This document shows, piece by piece, positions 1,961-20,826 of a stretch of 59,592 nucleotides of DNA; position 1 is the stretch's first letter, and every line of letters begins with the position of its first letter. This DNA is from a virus (lineage: Duplodnaviria; Caudoviricetes), in IMG/VR virus record IMGVR_UViG_3300021976_000014, positions 1 to 59,592 of that record; one strand, given 5' to 3'. The notes under the pieces were generated by a model. It searched no databases, was not told the DNA's origin, and saw only the letters and a list, made by a program, of their open reading frames with translations. The translations under genes were made by a program, and so were the position numbers.

Positions 1961-2031
1961 ATGGGCTTGGTGTAGTGGTAACACAGCGGTCCCCAAAACC
2001 GTTGACAGGGGTTCGATTCCTCTAGCCCGTG
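1961..2031 (+). tRNA. tRNA-Trp (CCA) with non-canonical C33, CCA end not encoded
   Basis: Cloverleaf: acceptor ATGGGCT/AGCCCGT, D arm GTGT-AGTGGTA-ACAC, anticodon arm GCGGT-CCCCAAA-ACCGT, T arm AGGGG-TTCGATT-CCTCT, discriminator G. Confidence 0.9.
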
Positions 2032-2417
2032 CTCTGGCTATTTACGCCTTCTTTCCTCAGTGCGTATTGTTCAGCCAGCCACGCCGCGACATCTACACGG
2101 TCAACTACGGTCCATGTATTCGGGGCACCGTCGCTGAGTGTGCGAACCACCAACCCGACGTCAGCGAGACGCCTGAGCGCGGTTTTCGCTTTGGTCGCAG
2201 ACACCCGTCCCTTGCTACCCGGACCTACGCGGTGTGCCCTACTGCGCCCCGGCTCGGTTCGACGGTCTCTCACCGTGCCTTGGACTCCATAGAAGTCCTC
2301 GAAGAAATCCGCGATCTCCTCGGTTGATCCCTTGCCCTCTAGTGCTAGGAGTGCAACAGCAGCTCTCAGCGCCCATCCTGGCGCAACGCGGTCGTCCTGT
2401 GTCATTCCCGTTGCCAT
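2022..2417 (-). CDS. Putative winged-helix DNA-binding protein
   Basis: GGAGG RBS. STEEIA...KAKTALRRLADVGLV..G.PNTW resembles a wHTH recognition helix plus wing. Confidence 0.5.
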   Translation of the reverse strand: MATGMTQDDRVAPGWALRAAVALLALEGKGSTEEIADFFEDFYGVQGTVRDRRTEPGRSRAHRVGPGSKGRVSATKAKTALRRLADVGLVVRTLSDGAPNTWTVVDRVDVAAWLAEQYALRKEGVNSQSTG

Positions 2418-2473
2418 CTAGCACACCTCCATGGACACAAAATGGCTTGCAGACTACCAATCGAGGAATTTAG

Positions 2474-3160
2474 TTGTCAAATCTCGTCATTATGGTGCCT
2501 ACGAAGGGCAGGCCACACGCCGTGGAGCCTCTGATGGAGGCTTTTCGAGGCACTTCCACCGCAGACAGCTCCGTCCTGCTGATTCTGGACGACGAAGACC
2601 CGAATCTAGAGTCTTACAAAACCGAATCGGCGCGTCTTTCCGTCGAATGGGCTATTCAGGACGGCCACAACCTTATAACCGGCCTGAATTTCGGCTACAG
2701 GGCTGTTTCTGATGCCTTCGCGGTCGGATTCATGGGCGACGACCACAGACCAATCACCGTCGGGTGGGATACGGAGTACCTGAAGGCTCTCGCCGACCTC
2801 GGGACGGGGATTGTCTACGGCAACGATCTCCTACAGGGCGAGGCATTGCCTACACAGGTCGCGATGACCGCTGACATCCCTCGTGCCGTCGGTTTCTTCG
2901 CCCCGCCGGGGTTGGTCCATCTCTACTGCGACGACTACTGGAAAGCACTCGGTGAGGGCGCCGGGTGTCTGAAGTACCTGCCATGTGTCACCGTCAGGCA
3001 CATCCACCCCGCTACGGGCGAGATCGAGTGGGATGCCCACCACCGACGGGTTAACGCCCCTGAGATGTACGTCAAGGACTCAGGCTCCTACCGAGCCTTC
3101 AGGATCGCTGGCGGCCTCCAGATGGCCGTAGACGCCGTCAGGGGGCTCAGAGAGCCATGA
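2474..3160 (+). CDS. Glycosyltransferase, GT-A fold (GT2-like)
   Basis: VIMVPTKGRP N-terminus, FMGDDH (DxD-like) motif and HLYCDD. Confidence 0.85.
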   Translation: MSNLVIMVPTKGRPHAVEPLMEAFRGTSTADSSVLLILDDEDPNLESYKTESARLSVEWAIQDGHNLITGLNFGYRAVSDAFAVGFMGDDHRPITVGWDTEYLKALADLGTGIVYGNDLLQGEALPTQVAMTADIPRAVGFFAPPGLVHLYCDDYWKALGEGAGCLKYLPCVTVRHIHPATGEIEWDAHHRRVNAPEMYVKDSGSYRAFRIAGGLQMAVDAVRGLREP

Positions 3161-3765
3161 GTGTAGGTATCGTCCTGCCGTGGCGGGACACGAGCCGTGA
3201 AAGGGCAAAGGCGATGGATACCGTCGTGGCCACCCTCAAGGATGTGCTACCGGAGGCTGTGTTGATCCCGGCCGACAGTTGGCACCAGGATTTCAACAGA
3301 GCCGCCAGCCGGAACGTCGGCGTCCGTGAGGCTCAAAAGCTCGGTTGTGGGGTCGTGGTCGTCTGTGACGCCGACTCCATTCCCGAGGCGGCTCCGCTAC
3401 GTGACGCCATCGCTGGCGCCCCTGACGGGCTCCTGCATCTCCCCTACACGAGGTTCGTCAGCCTCTCCCCGAAGGGTACGGCGCAATACCTGTCTGCGAC
3501 GCCTTGGTGGCTCTGTCACAGCATCCTTGATTGGGGAGACTCCGTGGGTGGGTGTTGGGTGATGACGCCTGAGGCTTGGTTTGCTGCCGGCGGGCAGGAT
3601 GAGCGGTTCTTGGAATGGGGTTGTGAGGACACCGCTTTCAAGGTCGACTGTGACAACAAGCTGGGTGCCACCGTTCGCCACGGCGGCACCCTCGTACACC
3701 TCTACCATCCAGCTACGCGGGAACTGAAAGATCCTGCGACAGCCCTCCTAGCGGAACATCTGTGA
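3157..3765 (+). CDS. Glycosyltransferase, GT2/GT7-like
   Basis: Motifs IVLPWR, FNRAASRNxG, VVCDAD, GGQDERFxxWGCED and HLYH. Confidence 0.85.
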   Translation: MSVGIVLPWRDTSRERAKAMDTVVATLKDVLPEAVLIPADSWHQDFNRAASRNVGVREAQKLGCGVVVVCDADSIPEAAPLRDAIAGAPDGLLHLPYTRFVSLSPKGTAQYLSATPWWLCHSILDWGDSVGGCWVMTPEAWFAAGGQDERFLEWGCEDTAFKVDCDNKLGATVRHGGTLVHLYHPATRELKDPATALLAEHL

Positions 3766-5548
3766 AGCCGAGATCCACGTTTCGCCCGAGCGCCCGAGGC
3801 GCTATGTCCTTCGGAATGGCCATGGCCATCCACATCCCCCGGTCATACGAGAAGCGGATGATGTCGGTTTCGGGACTCATGGAAACTTTAGTCCAGTCTG
3901 GCTGTTCCTCGCTCGTAGCGGCGTAAACCTTGATGCCAGCTTCTATCAGCATCATCCTTTGATCCAAGGTACCCTGTTTAGTCCAGTCCTCTGCATAGGT
4001 GGTGCCGACGCTACGCGTCTCGTACCCGGCATCTCGGGTGGGAGCCGAGGATAGTTCTTCGATCCTCGCCTCTAGCGCCTCGATCTCCTCTGTGTACACC
4101 TCCTGGACGGCAGGAGACTTTCCAGCGGACATCTTGATTGTGTCGCGAAGCTGTGACTTTGTTTCTAGAAGCTCTGCTTCGAACGACACCCCGGGTACGA
4201 ACATCCTCGCCAGCCGATCATGTGGTCCGATGATGTCGAGAAGTAGATCTTCGACCTTGAGGTCAAGTTTATTGATTCGGATGTACTTCGCGATGCAAGT
4301 TCCTTCGATCACCTTGCGAGCCTTCGGAATGGTGGTCTTCGCGCATCGGTAGTAGCCGTATTCCCCGCCGGTCTTCACTCGGGTGGTCCGGAAGGCATAT
4401 AGCGGTGAGTTGCAGTGAGCACAATAGCCAACGTCCAGCAGTAGCGAGTCTTGGCGTCCTCGGTACTTGCGACGGTTCACGCCGTCAAGCGCGTGCTGTA
4501 GGCGCTCCCACTGTTCCCGAGTAATGATCGGGTCGGCGCGGAGTACTGGAGCGGCGTTGGCATCCCTAACAGTCTTGTCGTCGTACGGCGTCTCGCCGAA
4601 GAGTGTTCGACTCCGGAGCGTCCGCTTGACAGTGCCTCCGGTCCACACCATTTTGTGAATAAGTCGTTCGCCTTGGGCTACGGGTTCTCCGTGGTCGACT
4701 GCCCACCGCCCCCCGCGCGGAGACTTCTCTACCGAGTGAGCTTCGCCGGTCGGATCGGTGATGACGAGGTGATCCTTCTCGATCGCCGTTACGATACCGC
4801 TCACGGGAGCGGTTGAGACTGGACGGGCTTGCGACTTATCTCTTGCCTTAGACTTCTCCATCTCGGCTTCCTTGGGTGCGGGTATGCCCTCTGAGTTGAG
4901 CCACACCGCGATGTCCTCAGCGGAGACTTTGTTCATTGCCTTCCTGATCATCTCTTCGGCATATGGAGCCAGCTCGGGGTTACGAATGAGTCGCTGGTTG
5001 TTCTCCCCATCCGCCTTGGTGGGAATGAGGTAGAAGAGATGCTTCCCGCCCGTCCAAAAGCCGTTTTTGACAAGATACTTCTTCGTCTTGCGGTTGCGGC
5101 TGAGGATACGGTTGGCTTCCATCTCCCCGAAGAAGGCGAACATGTAGGCCATAAACTGCACCATCGGGTCTTCGGGGCCGTTGCGATAGTCGAGAATGAA
5201 CGGTGCTCCGCTAATACCGTTGACAAAGTAGATGATCTTCCGGTGTTTGATAGCAAAGTTGCTCAGCGCAGCGAGGTCTTTCATGCTCCGGACGCCCCGG
5301 TCAGCATGAGCCCATATGATGCCCTGGTAGTGGTGTTGTCGCTCTGGGGTCAGCCATGGCCCGATACCGGGTCGCTCGAAGGGGTCGAGCGAGATTGCGG
5401 AGACGTCGAGGTCTTCAGCCCAAATCGTTATCCTAGCCGGGATCTTGGCAGCGTATGCTTTGATATCGTCGCGCTGACTCTGCGGCGACGTCGAGGGGTC
5501 TAGCTCTCCGCCGTGCTTGGAGAGCCTGAGGCCGGCTAGAAGGTCCAT
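3713..5548 (-). CDS. int: Large serine recombinase (integrase)
   Basis: Catalytic RLS..STSPxxQ, DxDVSA, DRxxR and AxxGEME motifs, recombinase domain, CxxC..YYRC zinc ribbon and coiled coil. Start placed at ATG 5548. Confidence 0.95.
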   Translation of the reverse strand: MDLLAGLRLSKHGGELDPSTSPQSQRDDIKAYAAKIPARITIWAEDLDVSAISLDPFERPGIGPWLTPERQHHYQGIIWAHADRGVRSMKDLAALSNFAIKHRKIIYFVNGISGAPFILDYRNGPEDPMVQFMAYMFAFFGEMEANRILSRNRKTKKYLVKNGFWTGGKHLFYLIPTKADGENNQRLIRNPELAPYAEEMIRKAMNKVSAEDIAVWLNSEGIPAPKEAEMEKSKARDKSQARPVSTAPVSGIVTAIEKDHLVITDPTGEAHSVEKSPRGGRWAVDHGEPVAQGERLIHKMVWTGGTVKRTLRSRTLFGETPYDDKTVRDANAAPVLRADPIITREQWERLQHALDGVNRRKYRGRQDSLLLDVGYCAHCNSPLYAFRTTRVKTGGEYGYYRCAKTTIPKARKVIEGTCIAKYIRINKLDLKVEDLLLDIIGPHDRLARMFVPGVSFEAELLETKSQLRDTIKMSAGKSPAVQEVYTEEIEALEARIEELSSAPTRDAGYETRSVGTTYAEDWTKQGTLDQRMMLIEAGIKVYAATSEEQPDWTKVSMSPETDIIRFSYDRGMWMAMAIPKDIAPRALGRNVDLGFTDVPLGGLSQDLSVPA

Positions 5549-5564
5549 AGCAAATGATCCTACA

Positions 5565-5610
5565 TCATCATTGGTGGTTCCTGGTGACCAGCAGGGCGAG
5601 CTAATGATGA
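5565..5610. other. attP: Candidate attP site
   Basis: 46-bp imperfect inverted repeat TCATCATT-N30-AATGATGA with inner CCTG.TG symmetry around a central AC/GT dinucleotide (5587-5588), directly upstream of int. Confidence 0.65.
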
Positions 5611-5849
5611 AGGGCTCCGCAGAAGAAACCCCCTGGTCAGAGCCGGCGCCCGCCTTCCTCGCCTGATCGGTTGTCGGCGCTCCGGAGAGCGCCACGCTAG
5701 CCCGACCCTCACCACGAGGGCGGGCTATTTCTTTGCCACCCGATACCCGATTTGCCATTTCTCTTGCACCCCATTCCGATTAAGTAGCCCATCTATTCGA
5801 CTCTAAAAGCTGCGTCCATAGTACACCACACCCCGACCCCGGAGGTTCA

Positions 5850-6323
5850 ATGAGCGACCGCAAAGACGAAGACCGCGTAAACCGCAACCCTTTAATTCAC
5901 AACATCGGAAACCTCCAGTGGGACGGCGTCAGGCGTGGCGCAGAGCTGCCCGAAGGCTACGAATGGTGCGACATGACGCAGCGGTGGTGGAATATCTGGC
6001 GAGACAGCCCTCAGGCAATGATGATGTCAGAGACCGACTGGCAGGAAATGCTCCTGTCCGCCAGGCTCCATAATTACATCTGGGGAATGCATATGGTCGT
6101 TGACAAGACCAACGGTGGGTTTATCTACACCGACTGCGACCCCAAGGACGCTAAGGCTTGCGCCTCGGAACTCCGGATCAGGCTCGAAAAGATGGGAGCC
6201 ACGATCAAAGACCGTGGCTCCCTCGGAATGCGTATCAACACCGGCCCGGCGGATGTCACGGCCGAAGCCGAGAAGATCACCAAGCAGTCCGCAGTTAACT
6301 ACCGCGACGCCCTAGGCGCCTAG
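5850..6323 (+). CDS. terS: Terminase small subunit
   Basis: T.RWW..WR.SPQA......DW..L...A.LH...ELR.R..K.GAT..DR pattern of actinophage terS; lies upstream of terL. Confidence 0.75.
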   Translation: MSDRKDEDRVNRNPLIHNIGNLQWDGVRRGAELPEGYEWCDMTQRWWNIWRDSPQAMMMSETDWQEMLLSARLHNYIWGMHMVVDKTNGGFIYTDCDPKDAKACASELRIRLEKMGATIKDRGSLGMRINTGPADVTAEAEKITKQSAVNYRDALGA

Positions 6324-6548
6324 CTAGTTCGGGTCCGGCTCCGGCGGGAAGTAGTCGGCGAATGGAACGATGTTCCCCACCGCCTTGACGGATTGGTTCA
6401 CCCCCGGCTTCTCAAGCCATTCGATAACGAGATAGTCCTCCCCTTTGTACTGGTAGGCATGCCGGAAGACCCCCCTGCGGTTGGAGTTGGTGTCTTCCAC
6501 CATCCGACCTTCCTCGAAATCGAGCAGGGTGAAGTCTGGTTTGGGCAT
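6324..6548 (-). CDS. Small hypothetical protein (possibly SH3-like beta barrel)
   Basis: Strong AGGAGG RBS; fills the terS-terL gap on the opposite strand. Confidence 0.6.
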   Translation of the reverse strand: MPKPDFTLLDFEEGRMVEDTNSNRRGVFRHAYQYKGEDYLVIEWLEKPGVNQSVKAVGNIVPFADYFPPEPDPN

Positions 6549-6654
6549 GGATCAACCTCCTAGAGCCCGGTCTCCGTCGGCGGTGATGAGTGTACGCCTC
6601 GCGCCCGGCCGGATGGAGCGGTTCTGGCAAAAATAAGTAACTCCTGGAGAGTTT

Positions 6655-8205
6655 GTGCTGCTCAACGATCGACCCCTTCCGGAGCTGAGCTTGGGTTGGG
6701 GGGTCCTTGACTGGTGCTCCGCCTACCTAAGCCAGCCAGACGGAATCAACAAAGGAGATACCTGGCGGTTCACTAACGAGCAAGCCCGATTCCTTGTCCA
6801 TTTTTACGCAGTGAACGAACACGGCAGATTTCTTTACCGCCGAGCCATCCTAGAGAGGGTAAAAGGGTGGGGAAAGTCCCCCCTTGTAGCGGCGGTTTGT
6901 TGCGCTGAGTTGCTGGGTCCGGTGTATTTCGATGGCTGGGATTCCGAAGGGAACCCCGTCGGAAGACCATTCCCGACTCCGCTAGTCCAGATCGCCGCTA
7001 TCTCTGATAGCCAAGCCGACAACACCATGAGCCTCGTCGGTGCGATGCTCGCCGACGGCGAAGCCGCCAATGAATACAACCTTGATATTGCCCTCTCTAG
7101 GGTTCTGGTTCCTGGTGAATTGCGAAAACTAGAGAAGGTAACCGCCTCACCGAGAGGCCGCGAAGGTAACCGTGCAACATTCATCTGCGCCGATGAAACG
7201 GGGCTTTGGGTACCGGCGGAACATGGACCTCAGCTAGCGGAAGCACTCCGCCGGAACCTAGGCAAAATGGGAGGTAGGTCAATTGAGACCACCAACGCTC
7301 CCGCGCCTGGCGAAAACAGCGTAGCTGAGGAGTCTCATAGGTACTGGACGCAGATCCAAGAGGGTCGGTCCTTTGATGAGTCACTGTTGTTCGACTCCGT
7401 CTCTGTGCACGTAGATGACATCTACGACAGAGCACTAGCGATGCCGGCGCTAAAGACCTGCTACGGCGACGCCACATGGGTTGACCTAGAGCGCATTTGG
7501 CAGGAAATCAACGACCCATCCAACCGAGAGTCCACTTGCCGGCGGTTCTACTTCAACGAAATGACAATCGGTGAATCAGGTTGGCTAAAACCCACCGAAG
7601 TGTACTTCTGTCGAGATGAAAACCTCAGACCACTAAAGAAGTCCGACCGAATCGCTATCGGATTCAAAGGTGCCGTCAGGAACGGTGCTGGCGCTGTTGT
7701 GGCTTGTCGACTCAGAGACCAGGCGCTATTCGTGCTTAAGGTCTGGGAGAAGCCCGATGACGCTCCGCGCGATTGGGAGGTCGATTACGTCGCTGTCGAC
7801 GACTTCGTTCGGAAGCAGCTAGAGAAGCGAGACGTCTATTTCGCGTACGCCGACCCCCATCAGTATCAAGACATCGTTGGTCGGTGGGCAGCGGATTTCG
7901 AAGACGTCTTTGAAGAATTCTGGTTGTCGAGCAAAACGAAAGCCGGGAAAGCAATTGAGCAACTAGAGAGTGCGATCAAGACACAGCGAGTCATCTGGAA
8001 GGACCAACCTGATCTCGAACGACACATCCTCAATTGCCATATCCAAGAAACACCTCAGGGGGATCTCCTACGGAAGGAGACCGCCGATAGCAAGCGATAT
8101 ATCTCGGTGGCCCAAGCCGCCGTACTAGCTCTTGAGGCATGTAAAGAGGCTATTGAGCGTGGGGGCCTGGAGCCCGAGGCGGATAGGACTTTGTATGCCT
8201 ATTAA
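6655..8205 (+). CDS. terL: Terminase large subunit
   Basis: Walker A-like RVKGWGKSP, Walker B ICADET, TTNA coupling motif and C-terminal nuclease region. Confidence 0.95.
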   Translation: MLLNDRPLPELSLGWGVLDWCSAYLSQPDGINKGDTWRFTNEQARFLVHFYAVNEHGRFLYRRAILERVKGWGKSPLVAAVCCAELLGPVYFDGWDSEGNPVGRPFPTPLVQIAAISDSQADNTMSLVGAMLADGEAANEYNLDIALSRVLVPGELRKLEKVTASPRGREGNRATFICADETGLWVPAEHGPQLAEALRRNLGKMGGRSIETTNAPAPGENSVAEESHRYWTQIQEGRSFDESLLFDSVSVHVDDIYDRALAMPALKTCYGDATWVDLERIWQEINDPSNRESTCRRFYFNEMTIGESGWLKPTEVYFCRDENLRPLKKSDRIAIGFKGAVRNGAGAVVACRLRDQALFVLKVWEKPDDAPRDWEVDYVAVDDFVRKQLEKRDVYFAYADPHQYQDIVGRWAADFEDVFEEFWLSSKTKAGKAIEQLESAIKTQRVIWKDQPDLERHILNCHIQETPQGDLLRKETADSKRYISVAQAAVLALEACKEAIERGGLEPEADRTLYAY

Positions 8206-8222
8206 CCCTTGACGGGAGACGT

Positions 8223-9866
8223 ATGCCCTATAGCGCAACCCTAACCGCCCCTCCGGGCAATCAGGGCTCTGGCCAGCCCTACAACTGGTCTATTTCTAAC
8301 ACCGCCGCTGGCGGTGCCAATTTTCCCCCGGGCTCTGCGGATTGGTGGTTGTTTCAGGGCATCCTCGCTATCGAGGGAAAACAACGCGACCACGCCGTAC
8401 GGCTTGCTTATGTCGACGGCGACCATCCTCTACCCAACGGTGACCCACGGTATGTCAAAGCCCTCCGTGACTTTCAGGAGAAGGCAAAGACTAACTATAT
8501 CGAGCTGGCGACGTACGCCATTCTCCCCCGTCTTGAGCTGAAAGGCTTTCGGTTCGGTCGCCCTGGCGGCGACGCCGACGGTGACGGTGAAGAGAAGCCT
8601 GCTGAAGCGACTCCACCGGCAAACGCCACTGCGACGCAGACAGCGGCTCCAAAGCCTAAGCCCGGTCGTAAGGGTCTAGCAGACGTAGACGCCCGGAAGT
8701 CGTGGATGGCTAACGACATGGACTTCCAGATGGAGCGGTTCCTGAAGGACGCCGCCACCTTCGGGGAGAGCTATCTACTCGTCAGCCCTCCTGAAGAGGA
8801 CTCGGACGAACCTGTGTTGACGGTTGAGGACCCGCGCGTTTGTCACGTCTTCGCGGACCCTATTCGTCCTACGCGGTCGCTCGCATCAGTCCGGCTGTGG
8901 AGGGATATCTACCTCGGTAGAACGATTGCCGTTGTGGACACCGGTGACAGCATTCATATCTACTACGGCCCGGCCAACAGCGAGACCGTTTCCGCGTCCG
9001 TAGCGCTGGTTAACGGTGGATTCCAGTCAGTTGAAGTCCTTGATAACGAACTCGGAGAAGTATCTCTCGTACGGTGCCAATGGCGTCCAGACGGGAAGTC
9101 TGAGGCTGAGGGAATCTTCTCTATCCAGGACCGTATCAACCTGACGATTCTCGATCGACTGGTAATCACGAAGTCTCAGGCGTACCGCCAACGGTGGATG
9201 ACTGGTGGCCAGATCGCTCAGACCGGCAAGAAAGGCAAATCCGGTGTAGACCAGAAGCCGCCTTTTGATCCTGGCGCCGACACCCTGTGGCACGTTCCAG
9301 CTCCGGATGCCAAATTCGGGGACTTCGATCAGGTCGATATCAATCAGATCCTCTCAGCCGTCCGCGACGACGTAATCGACGCCGCGACAATCCAGCAGAT
9401 GCCCGCTCACTATCTAATGGGCAGGCTTGCGAACATCTCCGGCGACACGCTGACTCAGGCTGAGAGCGGATTCGTGATGCGAATCAAAGCCCGGATGCGC
9501 TCAGTCGGGTGGACGCTAGAGAAGGCTATGCGCCTGGTCTTCAAGCTCAAGGGCCAAGAGGCGAAGGCGAAAGAACTCGACGCGGAAGTCATTTGGGGAG
9601 ACCCAGAGGTCCGGTCGTTGGCTGAGAAGTCTGACGCCGTTATGAAGTTCTCTTCAGCGTTCGCTACCGCCCCGCCATTCCTTGTCCCTGTGCTGGCTCA
9701 GTTTATGAATCTTGACCCAGACCAAACCGAGCAACTGATAGCTGACGCTGAGGTCTACCAGGCGGAGCAAAAGGCTCGCGAAGACCAGCAGCTACAGCAG
9801 CAAACCGAAAGCCAAATCCAGGTCGCTAAGGCGACCAAACCACTTGACGTCAAGAAAACTCCCTAG
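8223..9866 (+). CDS. Portal protein (SPP1 gp6-like)
   Basis: Position after terL; motifs IQDRIN.TI.DRL...SQAYRQRW and P.HYL...LANISGD. Confidence 0.9.
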   Translation: MPYSATLTAPPGNQGSGQPYNWSISNTAAGGANFPPGSADWWLFQGILAIEGKQRDHAVRLAYVDGDHPLPNGDPRYVKALRDFQEKAKTNYIELATYAILPRLELKGFRFGRPGGDADGDGEEKPAEATPPANATATQTAAPKPKPGRKGLADVDARKSWMANDMDFQMERFLKDAATFGESYLLVSPPEEDSDEPVLTVEDPRVCHVFADPIRPTRSLASVRLWRDIYLGRTIAVVDTGDSIHIYYGPANSETVSASVALVNGGFQSVEVLDNELGEVSLVRCQWRPDGKSEAEGIFSIQDRINLTILDRLVITKSQAYRQRWMTGGQIAQTGKKGKSGVDQKPPFDPGADTLWHVPAPDAKFGDFDQVDINQILSAVRDDVIDAATIQQMPAHYLMGRLANISGDTLTQAESGFVMRIKARMRSVGWTLEKAMRLVFKLKGQEAKAKELDAEVIWGDPEVRSLAEKSDAVMKFSSAFATAPPFLVPVLAQFMNLDPDQTEQLIADAEVYQAEQKAREDQQLQQQTESQIQVAKATKPLDVKKTP

Positions 9867-9879
9867 AAGGGGACTATAG

Positions 9880-10416
9880 ATGGCCGCCGAAGACGCGACT
9901 CAGGAAGTCACCGCTACCACCACCGAAACAGAGACCACCGAGACCGAAACCGTAGAGCAAAAGAAGACCCTTGAGCAGTTGTCGCCAGAAGAGCTGGTTG
10001 GGTACGTCAAGACTCTGCGCGCAGAGAATGCCAAGCACCGCACCGAAAAGAACGCGAAAGAGGCGGAGCTGACGGAATTCCGGACCTGGAAAGAGTCTCA
10101 GAAATCCGACATCGAAAAGGCTAACGACGCCGCCGCTGCTGCCAAGAAGGAGAACACCGACCTTCTTCGGAAGAACGCCGGGCTGTTCTACGGCCTTGAT
10201 GAGGATCTGTTGGAGTTCGTCAACGGTAGCACTCCGGAGGAGATTCAGGCTTCGGCAGCGAAGCTCGCTGGCAAGACCGCACCCGTGCAGAAAAAGACTT
10301 CTGCCAGTGACGTCTTTGCCGGCAACCGTGGCGAACCTGTTGGTTCGGGTCCCAAGGACACGAAGCAGCTCGCGAACGATTATATGTCTCAACTCATTTG
10401 GGGTAACGGTCGCTAG
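9880..10416 (+). CDS. Scaffolding protein
   Basis: Acidic coiled coil with LRAENAKHR and G.TPEEI.A.A..L; lies upstream of the capsid gene. Confidence 0.8.
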   Translation: MAAEDATQEVTATTTETETTETETVEQKKTLEQLSPEELVGYVKTLRAENAKHRTEKNAKEAELTEFRTWKESQKSDIEKANDAAAAAKKENTDLLRKNAGLFYGLDEDLLEFVNGSTPEEIQASAAKLAGKTAPVQKKTSASDVFAGNRGEPVGSGPKDTKQLANDYMSQLIWGNGR

Positions 10417-10440
10417 GACCCACCCCTTTCTACCTTCCTG

Positions 10441-10464
10441 AGGCGGCCTCTGGTCGCCTTTTTG
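10441..10464 (+). terminator. Weak terminator/attenuator-like hairpin between scaffold and capsid
   Basis: AGGCGGCC-TCT-GGTCGCCT followed by TTTT. Confidence 0.4.
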
Positions 10465-10488
10465 CTTTCCCTGAAAAAGGAGTACTAG

Positions 10489-11580
10489 ATGGCTATTGCC
10501 ACCACAGCCGGTCTTTACCGGCATGAACAGGATGCGTCGATCACGTCCGTCGGCAACCGCGTCCGCGAGTTGCCTCCGGAGATCGCTAGCGAAATCCTGG
10601 ATGACGTAATCACCGGGAGCGCGGCGCTTCAGCTCGGCGCCGTCAGCCGGATGACCCGGCGTGAGAAGATCTTCAACCTCACCGAGACCCTTCCCGAGGC
10701 TTACTGGATTCGGGGCACTACGGCTACCGATAAGCCGGCCTTCGGTCCTGGTTCTAGTCAGACAGATTCTAGCCGCGAGGCTAAGGATCTGGCGATGAAG
10801 CAGACCACGAGTATGACGTGGACCCAGAAGCGCATGGAAGCTGAGGAGATGGCGGTTCTCGTTCCACTGCCGGATACCTGGAAGGCTGATAGCGACGTCG
10901 ATTTCGAGGAGATCAAGCCCTACCTCGTTGAGGCTATGTCAAAGAAGCTGGACGCTGCGATTCTGTTTGGCGAAGAGGTTCCCACTTCGTGGGTTGCCAG
11001 CGGTTTCCGAGGCATCCTCCCGGATGCTATCGGGCGCGGTAACAGCGTCGCTGCGACGTCGTACCCGGTGGTTGGCTCTTCGCCGGCACGCCTGGATTAC
11101 GGCCTCGCGATTGCTGCTCTTGCTGAGCAGATGGCTGAGGATGGTTACGACCCGACCGGGTTTGTGACTTACCCCGGCTTCAAGTGGAAACTCGTGCAGA
11201 TGCGCGGTAACAACGGTGAGCCGATCTACCAAGGCGCTCTCGTTGGCGCGGACGGCCGACCGGCCCAGACCGTCTACGGCGAGACCCTTGCTGAGGTCCG
11301 CTCGGGTATCTGGAATACCCACAAGGACGACGCACTGATCATCGCGGGCCAGTGGAACACCCTGAAGATTGGTATCCGTCAGGATATTGAATTCGCGGTG
11401 ACCGATTCCGCTCCGATTTTCAACCAGGCCGGGACGCTGGTTCTGAATACGTTCCAACAGGACGCGAAGGTTCTTCGTGCGACGTTCCGCGTCGCCGCGA
11501 ACGTCATCAACCCGTTGATGCGCCTCGGTGGCGAATACCCGTTCTCGGTCCTTCGTCCGGACGCTGACTACTCCAGCTAA
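10489..11580 (+). CDS. Major capsid protein (HK97 fold)
   Basis: LPPEIASEIL, AEE.AV.VP and D.AILFG motifs; G.W.....GIRQDI...FQQD...LR. The C-terminus is ...DYSS. Confidence 0.92.
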   Translation: MAIATTAGLYRHEQDASITSVGNRVRELPPEIASEILDDVITGSAALQLGAVSRMTRREKIFNLTETLPEAYWIRGTTATDKPAFGPGSSQTDSSREAKDLAMKQTTSMTWTQKRMEAEEMAVLVPLPDTWKADSDVDFEEIKPYLVEAMSKKLDAAILFGEEVPTSWVASGFRGILPDAIGRGNSVAATSYPVVGSSPARLDYGLAIAALAEQMAEDGYDPTGFVTYPGFKWKLVQMRGNNGEPIYQGALVGADGRPAQTVYGETLAEVRSGIWNTHKDDALIIAGQWNTLKIGIRQDIEFAVTDSAPIFNQAGTLVLNTFQQDAKVLRATFRVAANVINPLMRLGGEYPFSVLRPDADYSS

Positions 11581-11582
11581 AT

Positions 11583-11937
11583 GGAGTCCGGCCCTGGGCG
11601 CAGGTGTGGAGACTGACGCTCCCGCCGGACATGAAGACGGCCTCTCCGTGGCAAGCGGAGAGGCCGTCAACCCAAGGGTGCCTACACAACCCAAACGACC
11701 CGTAGGGGGCCGCAGGAGTCTTCCCCCTTCCAGGGGAAAACCCCATCCTACCTTCCGGCACCGCTGAACCCTTCGAGGCCGTACCGGAAGGCAAGTCTTC
11801 AGTTGGAGTCCGGCCCTCCCCAACCAGGGGAGGGCCGGAAGGCCCCGCGTTTGCGGGGAGGCCGCCGCCGCGTAGCTCTTGGAAGGACCGTTCGCAGCGG
11901 TAACCCGCTCCCGCCGTGCCACCCACGGACGGAAGCA
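11583..11937 (+). ncRNA. Candidate structured non-coding RNA (about 9 tandem hairpins)
   Basis: Non-coding gap with stems such as GACGGCCTCTCCG/CGGAGAGGCCGTC, CCTTCCGG/CCGGAAGG and TCCGGCCCTCCCC/GGGGAGGGCCGGA, joined by A-rich linkers. Confidence 0.5.
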
Positions 11938-11973
11938 ATTTCGTTGAAATCCTCGCAGACCAGGAGTCTCAAA

Positions 11974-13002
11974 ATCAAGATCCTTGCCTACGTCCACCGT
12001 TATCGCGGCATGAACCGGAACGCCGGAGGCGAGGTCAGCATACACGCCCTCCTACGCCACCTCAACGCCGCCGGGCATCAGTGCGTCGCCCTGGTGGCGG
12101 AGCCCACGGAGGCCCCCTCCTACCACCTAGACGGGGTGGGGGTCATCACCACCAACTCTCCGGCGGAGATCAAGGCCGCGCCGGTCGAGTACTTCCACGG
12201 TGCAGACGTCGTCGTTACCCAGCTCAACAGCTCGTACCGAGCAGGAATCCTCGGGAGGATGGTCGGCACTCCAGTAGTGCATTACGCGCACAACACCGGC
12301 CCTTTCACGACTCGGATGGTCGGCGGGCAGTGTGATGCCGCTATCTATAACACCGAGTGGGTACGCCGACATTGCGAGAGTCAGGGTATATGGACACCCG
12401 GCGAGATCCTGAGGCCGGTTGTCGACCCGGCGGAGTACGCCACCCCTAACACCAGGGCTAGGCGGCACATCACCCTCGTCAACCTCTCGACCGGTGACGA
12501 CGGGCTTTACGACAAGGGCTATCAGACCTTCTTCGAACTAGCCCGCAGAAACCCCGATCTCCCGTTCCTAGCTGTCCGGGGCGCCTACGGCATCCAAGCC
12601 TACGAGCCTTTGCCCAATGTCACCTACCTAGACCACACGAACGATATCACCGAGGTCTACAAGCGGACGAAGGTCTTACTCGTTCCGAGCAGATACGAAT
12701 CCTATGGTCGAGTGGCTGTTGAGGCTGCCGCCTCCGGCATCCCGAGTATTTGCACCCCCACCGAAGGGCTAGTGGAAGCCATGCAGGGCTCGGCGGCGTA
12801 CGCCGAATACGGCGACTACGACGCATGGAATGACCGGCTGAGCTACGTCCTCGGTGACCTCTCCACCGTATCCGGCTACGCCAAAGAGCGTTCCGCATTC
12901 CTCCACACCCAAACCCGGCAGGAACTAGAAGCCGTCGACTTGATGTTCCAGATCATCCACGAAGGCGGGCTACAGGATTTCTACGACTACAAACAGAGGT
13001 GA
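11974..13002 (+). CDS. Glycosyltransferase, GT-B fold (GT4-like)
   Basis: Motifs AGGE, KG...F and LVPSRYESYGRVAVEAAASGIP. Start uncertain (ATC 11974 behind AGGAG, or TTG 11944). Confidence 0.9.
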   Translation: MKILAYVHRYRGMNRNAGGEVSIHALLRHLNAAGHQCVALVAEPTEAPSYHLDGVGVITTNSPAEIKAAPVEYFHGADVVVTQLNSSYRAGILGRMVGTPVVHYAHNTGPFTTRMVGGQCDAAIYNTEWVRRHCESQGIWTPGEILRPVVDPAEYATPNTRARRHITLVNLSTGDDGLYDKGYQTFFELARRNPDLPFLAVRGAYGIQAYEPLPNVTYLDHTNDITEVYKRTKVLLVPSRYESYGRVAVEAAASGIPSICTPTEGLVEAMQGSAAYAEYGDYDAWNDRLSYVLGDLSTVSGYAKERSAFLHTQTRQELEAVDLMFQIIHEGGLQDFYDYKQR

Positions 13003-13005
13003 GAT

Positions 13006-13548
13006 TTGATCACTCTAGAGGAGTTGGGGGTTGCTCTCAATCGACCTATCGCCGCCGAAGAAGAACCGTACTACCAATACCTAATCGACTCCGTCACCGC
13101 GTACATCTCCTCTGAGACAGGTGTCGCGTTCAGCCTCCATACCGCTGAAACTGTTCGCTACCGCGCCGACGGTAGAGGGATTGTCGAGCCAATCGGCCCG
13201 GTGGTCAGCGTCAGTGCTATCGATCCAATCAGAGACCTGTGGTTTCCCTGGGACTGCACCCCGACGTACGACGGCCTCAGCGAAATCTACGGCCTCAATC
13301 CCTACGACGTCGTGGACGTCACGTACACCTACGGGTACGCACTCGGTGAAGCCCCTGAGGACATCAAGAACGTTGCGATAGAAGCCGTCGTAGGCGTCAT
13401 TGAAAGCGACGACCACCTAGGCGACCTCTCCGAAAAGACCGTAGGGGATATTACCTACAAGTACCGCTTCTCCGATCTCAACTTCTCATCCTTCTCTCTG
13501 GCGACTTTGAACGCCTACAGAGGGGTGGCGAAGACATGGCGGCTGTAG
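13006..13548 (+). CDS. Head-to-tail adaptor
   Basis: Synteny; motifs V.VTYTYGY...PEDI and E.TVGD..Y.Y. Confidence 0.75.
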   Translation: MITLEELGVALNRPIAAEEEPYYQYLIDSVTAYISSETGVAFSLHTAETVRYRADGRGIVEPIGPVVSVSAIDPIRDLWFPWDCTPTYDGLSEIYGLNPYDVVDVTYTYGYALGEAPEDIKNVAIEAVVGVIESDDHLGDLSEKTVGDITYKYRFSDLNFSSFSLATLNAYRGVAKTWRL

Positions 13549-13892
13549 GGACGACGACTGTCGTCCTCATCCGGGCTCCACTGGTGCCGAGCGTGCGCGG
13601 CGGTCAGCTCCAGCGGGATTGGGATAACGCCGTTGAGTACGTCATCACAGGCTGCTCTGTCCAGCCGTATGCCCTCTCCGAAAAGCTCTCCGTAGAGACT
13701 CTCGACAACCGCGAGCATGCCAGGTCGTCCGTGCGAGTTTACGCACCGTCTGGGTCTGAGATGCCTGAGTCGACCGACCGGGCGAGGTACGCGGGCATCA
13801 CCTGGGAGATATGGGCTTTCCCGGATGAGTGGCGCGACTTCGAAGACCGCCGGCACCACATCGCCTTCTCAATGCGCCACCGGGAGGGCTAA
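13536..13892 (+). CDS. Head-to-tail stopper
   Basis: Synteny; DWDNA...GCSVQP...DR..Y.G..WE...P..W pattern. Confidence 0.75.
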   Translation: MAAVGTTTVVLIRAPLVPSVRGGQLQRDWDNAVEYVITGCSVQPYALSEKLSVETLDNREHARSSVRVYAPSGSEMPESTDRARYAGITWEIWAFPDEWRDFEDRRHHIAFSMRHREG

Positions 13893-14251
13893 TGGGTTTT
13901 CGGGTCAAGGACGTTCGGATCGACAAGCAGAAAGTCCTAGCGATCACTGACGGACCTAAGTACGCGGAGTACGCGAAGTCCAGAGCTGAGCGACTGGTCG
14001 ATCTCGCGGTAGCGGTATTCGAGGCCGCTGAGACTGAGCCCGGCCACCGGAAGTCCGAAACCACTCCACCTGTGTACGTCCAGTCATTCGAGATCCGGAA
14101 GATCGGTCGGCGGTGGCGAGTCGTGAACACCGACCCCGGGGCGAACTTAGTGGAGTTCGGCGCACATCCACGAGGTGGGCCTACCCCAACTCTGCGCTAC
14201 GCGCCTATGCGGAAAGCACTTGATCTGCTGGAAGCGGAAGGAAGGTTGTAA
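13892..14251 (+). CDS. Neck/HK97 gp10-like protein
   Basis: A.LVEFG...P..PMRKAL motif; TAATG coupling to the upstream gene. Confidence 0.6.
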   Translation: MGFRVKDVRIDKQKVLAITDGPKYAEYAKSRAERLVDLAVAVFEAAETEPGHRKSETTPPVYVQSFEIRKIGRRWRVVNTDPGANLVEFGAHPRGGPTPTLRYAPMRKALDLLEAEGRL

Positions 14252-14683
14252 TTGGCCGAATGGATTCTCCACGGAGATCCAGCGTCAGCGGCGGTAGACA
14301 TCCTCACCAATCACACCCCTGAACTATCTCCTTATGCTCTCGTCGGCATTTCGAAGGACCTAGTTGGGTGGAGTGCGCCCGAACGATGGATTGTAGTTAC
14401 GCGCGAAGGCGGTCTGAAGCAGTGGCCGAAAATCAGTAAGCCTCGGCTTGATTTCTACGTCTACGCCGAAAGCGACAACACCGCCGCTGACATCATCGAT
14501 CTCGCCTCAGCAAGCATATTCCGCGCCGCAAAGCTCTATCGGGGCTATGGCGTCCGGTTACACCGGGTTGTGGAAGAGGTCGGGGCTATCGATTCCTACG
14601 ACAAATTCTCGGAGTGCGACAGGTATTTCATGACTCTGAGATGGACTACTACTCCCGATCCCGAATCACTTCCTCAACCCTAA
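14252..14683 (+). CDS. Tail terminator
   Basis: Synteny; V.REGG and P.LD..VYA motifs. Confidence 0.7.
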   Translation: MAEWILHGDPASAAVDILTNHTPELSPYALVGISKDLVGWSAPERWIVVTREGGLKQWPKISKPRLDFYVYAESDNTAADIIDLASASIFRAAKLYRGYGVRLHRVVEEVGAIDSYDKFSECDRYFMTLRWTTTPDPESLPQP

Positions 14684-14698
14684 AAGGAGGGTTACCTT

Positions 14699-15262
14699 TT
14701 GGCTACCAATTACAATCCCACTGAAGTTCGGCTTGCGCCGGATGGCCGGGTACGTGTTTCCCCGGTGGGCACTGCTGAGCCGGTTGACGCAACTACTGCA
14801 TTCGATCCCCTGTGGGCCGAACTTGGCTGGGTCACCGAGGACGGCGTCTCTGTTACGCCTTCGATTGACACCAACGATATCAACATGTGGCAGAGCATTA
14901 CCCCGGTGAAGCGACCGCTTACCGGCATGGGTCTTGAAATCTCTGTTCCGCTTGGCTCCTTTAATAGGGACACCCTCGCTTTGTATTTCCTGAATTCCGA
15001 GTGGTCGACCGTTGGTGCCACCGGCCGACTTGAGATGCCCAATGCGCCGGTGTCTCAGGAAGTCGCACTTTCTGTTGAATGGGAGGACGACGAAGGCGAT
15101 ATGAATCGCCTGATCTTCCCTCGCGCAACCATGACGGACCGCGACGCTCTCAACCTGGTGCGAGCTGACGCAATCACCCTTGGTTTGACTTTCGCGACCC
15201 TTGCCGGTCCTGACGGCTACAGCGCCGTTCTCCTGACCAACAACCCCGCCCTCGTTAGCTAA
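14699..15262 (+). CDS. Major tail tube protein
   Basis: LGWVTEDGV...I..WQS motif, strong RBS; C-terminus is ...PALVS. Confidence 0.85.
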   Translation: MATNYNPTEVRLAPDGRVRVSPVGTAEPVDATTAFDPLWAELGWVTEDGVSVTPSIDTNDINMWQSITPVKRPLTGMGLEISVPLGSFNRDTLALYFLNSEWSTVGATGRLEMPNAPVSQEVALSVEWEDDEGDMNRLIFPRATMTDRDALNLVRADAITLGLTFATLAGPDGYSAVLLTNNPALVS

Positions 15263-15289
15263 ACCACCCAAACCAAACCGAAAGAGTAA

Positions 15290-15565
15290 ATGATGTCCAG
15301 CGAGGCAATCAAAACCGAGGCGCAGGCCGCCGAAGTTACCTTCGAGTTCCGTGGCGAGACTTTCACTCTTCCGCCGAGCCTCAACGAAGCTGACGGCGAT
15401 GTCCTGGAATTCTATGAAGACGACAAGCCTATTAGCGCCTTGAAGGCGCTGCTTGGTGCCGATCAGTTTGCTCGGTATAAGCGCGTACTGCGGCCGAAAG
15501 TGAAGGATCACGTTGAGTTTATCGAGGCTGCTTTCGCTGCGCTCGGGACCAGCTCGGGGGAATAG
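15290..15565 (+). CDS. Tail assembly chaperone (G)
   Basis: Lies between tail tube and tape measure; ends at the slippery sequence GGGGGAA. Confidence 0.8.
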   Translation: MMSSEAIKTEAQAAEVTFEFRGETFTLPPSLNEADGDVLEFYEDDKPISALKALLGADQFARYKRVLRPKVKDHVEFIEAAFAALGTSSGE

Positions 15566-18900: not shown

Positions 18901-19561
18901 TCTGGACTACATCAACAGGTACGGTGACGTACCCGCGATGTACGCCCGAGGTGGATTGGCGCAGACGTGGCCTTATAAGGCTGACGTCAGCAAAACAAAG
19001 ATACCGCAGATCCTTGAGGGTGGCGGTGGTAGCGGCCAAGTAGCCCGAATGATGTCCATCCTTCGGAACGCGTTCCCTGGGTTGGCTCTTATCAGCGGCT
19101 ACAGGCCGGGCGCTATTACCTCCACCGGAAACAAATCCTATCACGGCATGGGTCGGGCTGTAGACGTTCCGCCTCGGTGGGATGTCTTCAGTTGGATCAA
19201 GTCGACCTACGGCGCAATGACGAAGGAACTAATCTTCACGCCCGCCGGTGACCGGCAAATCAAGAACGGCCGGGAGCATGTCTTCAGCGGCGGGACGATT
19301 AAGCAGGACCACAACGACCATGTTCACTGGGCGTACGACAACGGCGGCGTCATCCCGCCTGGTGCGCCTTTCGTCAACAACTCCAACTCGGCTGAGCTGG
19401 CGCTGAACTCCGCTCAGGGGTCGGCGCTTGAAGACCGAATCCGGGACTCTGATCGAAAGATCGACGTCGCGGTGTACGTAGATGGCGTCCGGCGAGATGC
19501 CGAGATCGTATGGAACGAGAAGGCTGATGAACTGACGCGCGCATTAGGGGGTGGGGCGTAG
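15998..19561 (+). CDS. Tape measure protein with C-terminal putative peptidoglycan peptidase domain
   Basis: 1187 aa helical protein with a tape-measure domain, hydrophobic repeats, ATGG.V.GPG and SGYRPG..SYHG.GRAVD..HNDHVH motifs. Confidence 0.92.
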   Translation: MAGENQVGAGYIELIPELDNRRLARTTDQIRAHLKGMGRAVDKEWKAQNQDLIGEASRQFKSLHKGQAEGIFRAHRAEIKSSQSLQKQRQSAMSGEQRDQQRRISELDKWYKDKNALDARAMAESKRAQKAFASEMDKLFSDSVMKGVGATPTPPKPGAAGRLGYQAATPPPTSPNVGALGTSAANLDRLSSSLSQLSTRIGIASFQMQMLGVMLTTAVTGPALMAFGGLARSGLQFAVNIDYARASMKALLKPSDDVEQILNDIKQISIDSPMFAAQDAIQYAQQIAAVGVKGRDLTRTMQAMSNIFLTQGVAGPERAKLAMLAYTQILSKGKIGMDDLRQQFAEHVPGGIKIFEQVALTMGYKSIKALNKGLVEGKVSMVDLNEAFIKFGNSEKYVTGAANAAQTLGGVWQAFTEEIVSTVGSAFDRNRAQIINAINGIRPVVMAFINWFVAALPAMIQAVNNLVIKIRGIKAAYDALNPETQKVIQQLGLMVLVAGPASVALGILGTALSTVANAASLLVKVLSLATAGGSLGVLGVLMTTVAVAAVVLGGAMVYLYNKSAPFRKVFLQVANLLKDAIGTIILPLVDALWGAIVSLGRTFEGLGLKTEHLAYALLILGVPIAMVALALGVLLIVVKAIQIAVAVLISAFDALMHILASTMYTAQALMEALANIPGPLGESAGQTGKDIQALRDGMVGLVDTTGAWKTVGTGADSVTQGLQQTLANTDLTATGLAGVFDHLGLGVDDLTKKEIGLEEALQNARRAMDAQGSAAAGAADANDAYKRAKLALTESVDRNGRSLTDNSRASLDNRDALKSAGQASYEKMLQDIRSGVPMDKAIARHKARTNQLIKEFGANKATNTAAKTLIDTYAKVPKDVKTLLGIMGYKDVNARMIELLVKQRTLRYPETSAAAVRAAIAKQERIKAATGGLVRGPGGPVADKIPAMLSNKEYVVKASATRAVGTGILDYINRYGDVPAMYARGGLAQTWPYKADVSKTKIPQILEGGGGSGQVARMMSILRNAFPGLALISGYRPGAITSTGNKSYHGMGRAVDVPPRWDVFSWIKSTYGAMTKELIFTPAGDRQIKNGREHVFSGGTIKQDHNDHVHWAYDNGGVIPPGAPFVNNSNSAELALNSAQGSALEDRIRDSDRKIDVAVYVDGVRRDAEIVWNEKADELTRALGGGA

Positions 19562-20826
19562 TGGCGACTCTGAACGCTAACCCCTTCTTCGAGACGAACA
19601 TCACCAACTGGACCGCAGTCCAAGGCACTGTTGCCCGGTCGACAGCGCAGTTTCACCAGGGCATCGCTAGCCTCCTTCTGACTCCGAACGGCACCGGCGC
19701 GACGACGGAAGCGCGAGCCGAGCTGGTTCCTGTGACGGCGGGTGGCAAGTATCGTGCGTCAGCTTGGGTGCGGTGCGCTGTTGCCCGTAGTGTGTCAGTG
19801 AACATCAACTGGCACACGGCTGCTGACGTCTACATCATTACGTCCACCTTCACTGCCGCTGTCGCTGCTAACACCTGGGCCTTCTTGGATCTCGCTGAGG
19901 CAACCGCTCCACCGACGGCGGCCAAGGCTCGAATCTTAATAACTCTCTCAACAACCCCACCGATCACACACACCCTTTATGTCGATCAGGCAATCCTTTC
20001 TCATCTCTCGATTACTGCGGTCCACAACGGCAACCCTGACAGTCCCGGAATCGATATCACGGTTAGCGATATCGATGCAGCCCGAGATCGCCTGAGTATC
20101 GTCCGACACGACATCTTCGGAGAACACCCTGATGCCGCGATCAGGGGGGCGGACAGCATTACCATATCCGGGATCACTTCGTTCGCGATCACAGATTACG
20201 AAGCCCCGGTTGCCAACCCTGTTGAATATCTGGTTACCGTCTGGAATAACCCTAGTAGCAACCTCAACTCAGCGACGTCGAATGTCGTCACACCTCCGGC
20301 GTTCTTTCCGGGTGACACCTGGATTAAGAGCGTTTCTCAGCCGGCGCTCTCCCGGCGAGTAAATATGGTTGACTTCAGTGAGGTCTCAAACCCCGGTCGA
20401 GTACTAGGCGAATACGACGTCCTAGGCAAGCGAAACAAAGTTGTCATCATGGATGTCCCTGGCGGACGCGAGGGCGCCTTCTCTTTGTTGACCTACGAGA
20501 TAACTGGCAACGCCGTCAACTCCAATCCAAACGACCTACGGCTGTTGTTGGAGCAGGGTCGGACGCTGTTCCTTCAGACAATGGGACGAAGCCAAACCGG
20601 CGAGACAGATATGTACCTCGAACTTAAATCGGTCGACCGGACGCGAGTCGGGCCGATTGGCAACGACCTCGTATTTCTGCATCGGATTTCGTACGTAGAG
20701 GTCGATCGGCCATCAACCGCTGAAGAATCTCTGGGCCTGCTGAGCTGGCAAGACATTCTTGACACCTACGCCACCTGGCAAGACGTTCTTAGCCTCAACA
20801 CCACCTGGCTTGATCTACTCGAATAA
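19561..20826 (+). CDS. Minor tail (distal tail-like) protein with N-terminal carbohydrate-binding module
   Basis: LNANPFFET...W..V.AG..Y..SAWVR is CBM4/9-like; position after the tape measure gene. Confidence 0.7.
   Translation: MATLNANPFFETNITNWTAVQGTVARSTAQFHQGIASLLLTPNGTGATTEARAELVPVTAGGKYRASAWVRCAVARSVSVNINWHTAADVYIITSTFTAAVAANTWAFLDLAEATAPPTAAKARILITLSTTPPITHTLYVDQAILSHLSITAVHNGNPDSPGIDITVSDIDAARDRLSIVRHDIFGEHPDAAIRGADSITISGITSFAITDYEAPVANPVEYLVTVWNNPSSNLNSATSNVVTPPAFFPGDTWIKSVSQPALSRRVNMVDFSEVSNPGRVLGEYDVLGKRNKVVIMDVPGGREGAFSLLTYEITGNAVNSNPNDLRLLLEQGRTLFLQTMGRSQTGETDMYLELKSVDRTRVGPIGNDLVFLHRISYVEVDRPSTAEESLGLLSWQDILDTYATWQDVLSLNTTWLDLLE

Follow-up and report, generated by a model that had tools for sequence, protein, structure and literature searches.

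What does a glycosyltransferase (GT) act on when its gene lies between the capsid and head-tail adaptor genes of a phage? The question is raised by IMG/VR record IMGVR_UViG_3300021976_000014, all 59,592 bases of which are called the window here. Besides this gene, GT-B, the window encodes two further GTs, GT-A1 and GT-A2, and a putative sugar methyltransferase, and its capsid and tail tube proteins both end in serine. A sequence-only reading of this DNA had proposed that the four enzymes form one distributed system that glycosylates the virion. The observation behind that reading was partly confirmed, and comparison with related loci appears to support part of its interpretation. Virion glycosylation by phage GTs is already known and is not new in kind; it is known from a few mycobacteriophages, in which it is reported to shield the particles from antibodies (PMC11256854, PMC12363180). 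Here, we describe the co-occurrence of a C-terminal Ser on capsid and tail tube with a GT-B gene beside the capsid gene, and we weigh what the four enzymes may do.

The major capsid protein of the window (10489-11580, + strand; 363 aa, HK97 fold, PF05065) ends in ...PDADYSS, its last residue, Ser363, being encoded at 11575-11577, and the tail tube protein (14699-15262, + strand; 187 aa, PF25681, 1.5e-24) ends in ...NNPALVS, with Ser187 at 15257-15259. Both proteins, read from the sequence, have the endings ...DYSS and ...ALVS that had been noted before. Does this terminal Ser go with the GT-B gene in other phages? GT-B loci were collected by an alignment-based profile scan of IMG/VR, which gave 550 relatives, the best 80 of which were examined; a scan with the single sequence retrieved none. 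GT-less relatives were obtained by capsid-alignment scans of IMG/VR, and a locus was called GT-less when at least 2.5 kb downstream of the capsid gene was free of a GT4 match. In 141 loci with a complete 3' end of the capsid gene, a raw set in which several contigs are present twice, terminal Ser was found in 89 of 92 capsids with a GT and in 1 of 41 without, and 8 were undecidable. Identical sequences were merged and clustered at 90% identity, and six isolates and the window were added, giving 105 rows; 61 of the 65 capsids with a GT end in Ser in this set, as does 1 of the 40 without (table 61/4/1/39). The distinct tail tube sequences comprise 51 with Ser and 4 with Thr among 58 from GT-B loci, and 1 with Ser and 2 with Thr among 26 from GT-less loci. 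As anticipated in the earlier reading, the terminal Ser co-occurs with a capsid-adjacent GT-B across relatives.

Other structural proteins of the GT-B loci seldom end in Ser (TerL 5/39, portal 5/46, adaptor 0/25, scaffold 0/12), whereas in the loci used for the TerL and portal comparison Ser ends 56 of 58 capsids and 24 of 29 tail tubes. Terminal Ser on the capsid and tail tube in GT-B loci exceeds chance. Furthermore, the residues before the capsid Ser vary (FSS, TLS, VGS, GAS, PAS, AGS, HQS, QQS, TYS, and others) among capsids of 28-80% identity, and in the family alignment the 3-7 residues past the last conserved motif are variable save the final one. In an AlphaFold (AF2) model of the window capsid, residues 357-363 form a low-confidence coil of 7 residues after the last strand; the top Foldseek match of the model is the Muddy capsid, 8EDU (E 6e-28). 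Ser363 of the capsid is a predicted glycan attachment site.

The association was also seen outside the environmental contigs. Named prophage regions of Plantactinospora, Micromonospora, Kutzneria, Streptomyces, Pedococcus, Actinomadura, and a metagenome-assembled genome of a Pseudonocardiaceae member gave 32 loci, 11 of them with a capsid match; the capsid ends in Ser in 10 of these and in Thr in one, and the tail tube ends in Ser in all 11. Seven isolates with related capsids (Muddy, JacoRen57, ReT1v-2, FF47, Bbif-1, Eileen, and Pajaza), classed as GT-less from the annotation of a 13-15-kb stretch around the capsid gene, show no terminal Ser (0/7), their last capsid residues being E, P, P, E, K, F, and A. 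The lone GT-less row with a Ser-ending capsid is L295 (...PASS; region 6001-10910). Directly after its capsid gene lie genes for a Glyco_trans_1_2 GT and an FkbM methyltransferase and a weak GT47/RXYLT1-like gene. Because a different GT/methyltransferase cassette follows its capsid gene, L295 backs the terminal Ser rule rather than breaking it, and the cassette looks like a second, independent capsid-linked glycosylation module.

A few other features of these proteins were observed. In the GT-less phages L088 (Muddy) and L091 (FF47), capsid and tail tube have in common an acidic, Gly/Glu-rich C-terminal tail (...GEGESE and ...GEGEGE), so that the ends of capsid and tail tube appear to vary together even where there is no glycosylation. 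The window capsid has a Ser-rich insertion of about 25 residues, at residues ~88-115, modelled with low confidence, which is common only to the closest relatives L008 and L009 and, in shorter form, L011; the insertion may provide another surface loop or another site of modification. The small head-tail protein at 14252-14683 ends in ...SLPQP in the window, while its homologues in GT-B loci end in Ser in 9 of 16 distinct sequences. Some phages may thus have this protein as a third substrate, or its Ser may reflect chance or shared descent.

GT-B itself (11944-13002, + strand; 352 aa, GT4 family) lies between the capsid gene and that of the head-tail adaptor (13006-13548). It has 424 database relatives, the nearest named ones being from Plantactinospora solaniradicis (69% identity) and Micromonospora sp. 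CB01531 (55%). A homologous capsid gene was found upstream of GT-B in 70 of the 80 loci; the upstream sequence is cut off in 4, and 6 have none. The distance from the capsid stop to the GT-B start is 150 nt or less in 49 of the 70, and the adaptor gene is directly 3' of GT-B in the relatives' loci. An alternative order, capsid, tail tube, GT-B, adaptor, is seen in L012, L013, and L023-L025. The place between capsid and adaptor genes is kept across capsids of 28-80% identity, and the GT-B family is found also in prophage regions of many Actinomycetota. Among 50,697 phage records, the Streptomyces phage TurkishDelight is the sole isolate with a GT-B homologue (36% identity); in it, two GT-Bs are fused into one protein of 678 aa (L007 7945-9981). 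Two copies follow the capsid gene in tandem in L109 (6874-9478).

The open reading frame (ORF) of GT-B extends back to 11803, but homologues point to the TTG at 11944 as the start; this codon is preceded by a purine-rich stretch and gives the same 352-aa protein as the public gene call P0003. The sequence-only reading was right that there is a GT-B gene after the capsid gene, but had its start at 11974, which is an ATC codon, and had placed it directly after the capsid gene, from whose stop it is separated by 363 nt. The protein matches Glycos_transf_1, Glyco_trans_1_4, and Glyco_transf_4 in Pfam. In the long ORF, PF13439 and PF13579 match at residues 75-209 and PF00534 and PF13692 at residues 264-352, the GT4-type layout of two Rossmann-like domains, Glyco_transf_4 N-terminal and Glycos_transf_1 C-terminal. 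Profile matches to the structures of MshA, BshA, and GlgA were obtained. Across 38 aligned members of the family, E252 and E260 never vary; they form the EX7E motif of the C-terminal domain. By these sequence features, GT-B is a GT4-type enzyme with an intact EX7E motif.

The spacer between the capsid and GT-B genes (11581-11943, + strand; 363 nt) is structured and long compared with the median of about 70 nt in relatives. It contains three inverted repeats with stems of 13-14 bp (11636-11668, 11751-11791, and 11809-11839) as well as a 14-nt direct repeat whose copies, at 11582 and 11804, are separated by 222 nt, and its predicted RNA fold has z = -4.66 against shuffles. No Rfam family was found in the spacer, the only two matches (E 0.4 and 0.98) being far below the gathering score, and no promoter-like or terminator-like site was seen within it. 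The spacer may have arisen by insertion of a small element, or it may act as an attenuator that keeps GT-B expression lower than that of the capsid.

Could these enzymes instead modify the phage DNA or surface polymers of the host, with the terminal Ser serving some other purpose or kept by descent? GT-B fold enzymes include phage DNA glucosyltransferases. The window encodes ThyX and a DNA methylase, which would suit such a role, but no ThyA-type hydroxymethylase was found among the 20 non-structural ORFs scanned, which are part of all ORFs, and GT-B itself is, from its profile matches, a GT4 enzyme related to MshA and BshA. The Ser association rests on few independent events, as discussed below; yet the terminal Ser is found on two unrelated proteins of one particle, and again in the phages Che8, Corndog, and TurkishDelight, while other structural proteins of the same loci seldom have it. 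Nor would a DNA or host surface target fit readily with a GT-B gene that stays fixed between capsid and adaptor genes over capsids only 28-80% identical. We therefore regard an exclusively non-virion target as very unlikely.

What are the other three enzymes? GT-A1 (2474-3160, + strand; 228 aa, TTG start) has no match in Pfam or NCBIfam, and a sequence search of the PDB gave only chance matches. It matches PHROG 14945, "glycosyltransferase", at 2.8e-37, and belongs to a family of at least 1232 unnamed homologues. In 36 sequences, G88-D89-D90-H91 is invariant, a candidate for the acidic DXD-type motif that binds metal and nucleotide-sugar. The AF2 model, with a predicted local distance difference test score (pLDDT) of 92.7 and a predicted template modelling score (pTM) of 0.90, matches the GT2-type GT-A enzymes K4CP, TarP, WrtF, and AvpGT in Foldseek with probability 1.00 and E 1e-9 to 4e-10. 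Judged by this model, GT-A1 is a GT-A fold glycosyltransferase of an uncharacterised family that has no Pfam model. The family is present in 6 of 10 whole records that carry GT-B and in 0 of 10 without it, 5 of the latter 10 being at least 90% complete. The gene is upstream of the terminase genes in L008, L014, L045, L057, and the closest whole-genome relative of the window, G001, in which GT-A1 is immediately 5' of these genes and which also has GT-B and an integrase.

GT-A2 (3157-3765, + strand; 202 aa) overlaps GT-A1 by 4 nt. Its Pfam matches, to Glyco_transf_7C/7N, are below threshold, and it matches PHROG 1721 at 5e-21. In BLASTP, it is 26% identical to Che8 gp109 (E 4e-9) and 28% identical to Corndog gp37 (E 3.5e-13), alignments that mark it as a homologue of both. 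The two GT-A genes that had been placed at 2474 and 3157 are thus borne out, the first by PHROG 14945 and its fold model and the second by PHROG 1721. Isolate phages with the GT-A2 family account for 217 records, 202 of Mycobacterium, 14 of Gordonia, and 1 of Mycolicibacterium. PHROG 1721 genes are found in 2 of the 10 GT-B-bearing records, in one of which a copy adjoins GT-A1, the arrangement also seen in the window. GT-A2-type genes are part of the capsid/GT-B module in L022, where one separates the capsid gene from GT-B, and in L080, where one directly follows GT-B.

The methyltransferase gene (1085-1741, + strand; 218 aa) matches PF04989 at 2.7e-34 (119.2 bits against a cutoff of 23.2, profile positions 11-205 of 206) and also Methyltransf_24 at 1.9e-8. 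The match to the NCBIfam model of the mycobacterial rhamnosyl O-methyltransferase, NF045824 (2.2e-18), is 66.5 bits against a cutoff of 400, below equivalog level. The product is a putative sugar O-methyltransferase of the CmcI/rhamnosyl-O-methyltransferase family. Its identity as a CmcI methyltransferase agrees with the earlier description, although the gene lies outside the range 2474-15262 to which the proposed system had been assigned. No homologue was found in the 50,697 phage records. The C-terminal domain of Che8 gp108 likewise matches Methyltransf_24, but no pairwise similarity to gp108 or to Corndog gp35 was found. The methyltransferase is the least supported member of the proposed system.

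How does this set of enzymes compare with known systems? Che8/Corndog-type GT cassettes are reported to modify capsid and tail tube (PMC11600133). In Che8, gp108 is a GT2 fused to a TylF-like methyltransferase, gp109 belongs to PHROG 1721, and gp110, which is called essential in PMC12363180, is GT25-like (PHROG 854). Like the window, Che8 has three phage GTs plus a methyltransferase function, and, with the genome ends joined, its GT genes come immediately before those of the terminase. Its capsid (...KTGS) and tail tube (...SDGS), read from the records, also end in Ser. However, Che8 has no GT-B gene beside the capsid gene, its capsid protein and that of the window are not alignable, and the methyltransferase of the window is free-standing and of the CmcI type. 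In Corndog (cluster O), gp35-gp38 encode a methyltransferase and then three GTs, in the structural block just upstream of the capsid gene. The Corndog capsid (...LVGS) and tail tube (...KGDS) end in Ser as well, but its GTs are all encoded upstream of the capsid, and GT-B and GT-A1 have no match among them. Unlike the window, Corndog is a lytic phage with a prolate head, according to PMC11600133.

Pairing the enzymes of the window with those of Che8 in the same order (GT-A1 with gp109, GT-A2 with gp110, GT-B with gp108) gave no similarity; only GT-A2 and gp109 matched. Nothing in the window matches Che8 gp108 or Corndog gp35, gp36, or gp38, and no homologue of Che8 gp110/Corndog gp38 was found by BLASTP of 21 window proteins (E <= 0.01) or by TBLASTN of the whole window (E <= 1). 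The claim of a GT-A/GT-B combination different from the known one holds for GT-B, GT-A1, and the CmcI-type methyltransferase, which have no counterpart in Che8 or Corndog, but not for GT-A2, which is homologous to gp109 and gp37. TurkishDelight gp20, annotated as "glycosyltransferase", is encoded between the capsid and major tail genes, as is GT-B in the window, and here too capsid (...GSTS) and tail (...CVAS) end in Ser. It differs from the window in its double GT-B of 678 aa, its genome of 93.6 kb, and its 575-aa capsid of another type. A search of the literature found no study of TurkishDelight gp20. Staphylococcus aureus TarP, among the top structural matches of GT-A1, is likewise a GT-A fold enzyme encoded on a temperate phage; it acts on wall teichoic acid of the host, whereas the GT-A1 family tracks the capsid-linked GT-B.

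On the observed gene identities, folds, conserved gene order, and co-occurrence of GT and terminal Ser, we propose the following mechanism. GT-B would be made alongside the late structural proteins, its gene lying between those of the capsid and the adaptor, and would start the glycan on capsid and tail tube by loading a sugar, taken from a nucleotide-sugar donor, onto the hydroxyl group of their C-terminal Ser. Because its two substrates have only the last residue in common, GT-B probably reads an exposed C-terminal Ser and not a sequence motif. The glycan would then be lengthened by GT-A1 and the gp109-like GT-A2, whose genes precede those of the terminase, and the CmcI-type methyltransferase would O-methylate a sugar and so cap the chain. 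The outcome would be a glycan coat on head and tail, as reported for Che8 and Corndog, but started by a different enzyme. What we infer in this scheme is which residue accepts the glycan, which sugars it contains, in which order the enzymes act, whether it shields the particle, and that the two GT-As and the methyltransferase share their glycan with GT-B. We consider it fairly probable that the enzymes form such a single system, with GT-B initiating, the GT-A enzymes extending, and the methyltransferase capping.

Several points weigh against this proposal, and some of them concern the serine. The four GT-bearing capsids without terminal Ser end in GSN, GSA, SLT, and ALT, and some tail tubes of GT-B loci also have another last residue (51 of 58 have Ser, 4 Thr, and 3 neither). 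L110 has a capsid with terminal Ser, but no GT4 within 8 kb, the next ORF being an unassigned one of 490 aa. The Gordonia phage Sephiroth (L252), with a Che8-like GT cassette, has a capsid ending in ...DTSA. The association also rests on few changes: in a FastTree phylogeny of the capsids, from which the last 8 residues had been removed, no more than 5 changes of the GT-B label are seen. All 4 independent contrasts are concordant, and so are those of a larger set, which has 5 over all branches and 2 if only well-supported branches are counted; with so few, a sign test is unable to reach 0.05. The Fisher p of 4.9e-20 for the association of Ser with GT-B is inflated by shared ancestry and overstates the evidence, since the label changes are few and the capsids are related. 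The small number of independent gain or loss events (about 5) is the main weakness of the association. Among the enzymes, the window is without one of the gp110/gp38 type, the methyltransferase is absent from the flanks of the 80 GT-B loci, G001 has neither GT-A2 nor a methyltransferase, and GT-A1, GT-A2, and the methyltransferase sit beside the integrase.

Some evidence carries weight beyond the Fisher p. The last residue is constant while its neighbours vary, and the same terminal Ser is found on a second, unrelated protein and in three further phages. Of these, Corndog has major capsid and tail tube proteins without a match to window proteins (E <= 0.01), and the capsids of Che8 (273 aa) and TurkishDelight (575 aa) differ greatly in length from that of the window. 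The tail tube of Sephiroth ends in ...AAGS. The capsid ending of this phage, together with those of L046 and L051 (GSN and GSA), hints that a penultimate Ser may also serve.

The neighbourhood of an integrase is a typical place of lysogenic-conversion genes. The functions may then be split, with GT-B acting on the virion and GT-A1, GT-A2, and the methyltransferase expressed from the prophage to modify a glycan or glycolipid of the host envelope, for example, to block superinfection; there would then be no single distributed system. The three genes lie at the margin of the structural arm, next to the serine integrase (3713-5758), but they are co-directional with the late operon, and GT-A1 is upstream of the terminase genes in G001, L014, L045, and L057. 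TarP, a prophage-encoded wall teichoic acid GT, is among the structural neighbours of GT-A1, and the methyltransferase family takes its name from a rhamnosyl O-methyltransferase with envelope glycolipids as substrates; GT-A2, however, is in the family of Che8 gp109 and Corndog gp37, whose cassettes are reported in PMC11600133 to modify capsid and tail tube. G001 retains GT-B and the terminal Ser without GT-A2 and the methyltransferase, and of the 10 GT-B-bearing records, 4 are missing GT-A1 and 8 a PHROG 1721 gene. Against this, GT-A1 is confined to GT-B-bearing records (6/10 versus 0/10), and GT-A2-type genes occur within the capsid/GT-B module in L022 and L080. A split of functions is unlikely on balance, though it deserves more weight than a target outside the virion, and we continue to favour a single system.

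The window is a complete genome of a temperate siphophage; the record is linear and 100% complete according to CheckV. No close relatives of positions 2000-15500 were found by megablast in the 50,697 deposited phage genomes. G001 shows synteny with the window along its entire length. The nearest GT-B relatives are in records titled Plantactinospora and Micromonospora, so that the host is probably a member of the Micromonosporaceae; this fits the expectation of the sequence-only reading that the host lineage differs from that of Che8. The rightward left arm starts with a gene for a 265-aa protein (73-870), followed by a 71-aa ORF. The gene for the large serine integrase (3713-5758, - strand) is flanked by the GT-A genes and the small terminase gene and has the opposite orientation to its homologue in G001, in which GT-A1 is between the integrase and the terminase genes. 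Genes for the small and large terminase subunits, portal, and scaffold run rightward between the integrase and capsid genes. Three small head-tail genes follow that of the adaptor, and chaperone and tape measure genes follow that of the tail tube. The protein encoded after the tape measure (19561-20826) has a CBM_4_9 carbohydrate-binding domain, which suggests a glycan receptor on the host. The leftward right arm encodes ThyX, nucleases, a DNA methylase, a repressor-like helix-turn-helix protein, and a DnaE-type polymerase. The GC content at third codon positions of the GT genes (0.70-0.76) is on a par with that of the capsid gene (0.71).

What would this system mean for the phages that carry it? 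Neither a capsid-adjacent GT4 module nor a terminal Ser rule was encountered in the literature searched, although the genomic survey of Freeman et al. 2023, on Che8 virion glycosylation, may overlap. Three features appear to be unreported there: the fixed place of a GT4 gene next to that of the capsid, in hundreds of Actinomycetota phage and prophage sequences; a module that lacks a gp110-type enzyme; and a near-invariant terminal Ser on both substrates. More broadly, O-glycosylation of a last-residue Ser on capsid and tail tube may be widespread in environmental Actinomycetota siphophages, and no peculiarity of mycobacteriophages, by way of a capsid-adjacent GT4, the Ser handle having arisen several times with unrelated initiators (GT4 here, a GT25-like enzyme in Che8 and Corndog, and the Glyco_trans_1_2 cassette in L295); we see about as much reason to accept this generalisation as to doubt it. 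If it is true, terminal Ser on both proteins together with a phage GT would predict a glycan-coated virion from sequence alone. If the module works as proposed, a small single enzyme for an exposed C-terminal Ser would also be a tool for coating phage particles or other protein assemblies. Furthermore, a glycan coat would be a common trait of actinophages from soil and from prophages, with Streptomyces and Micromonospora among their hosts, and such phages would be recognisable by a simple sequence signature. This raises the ecological question of what use a glycan coat is to phages that never meet an immune system.

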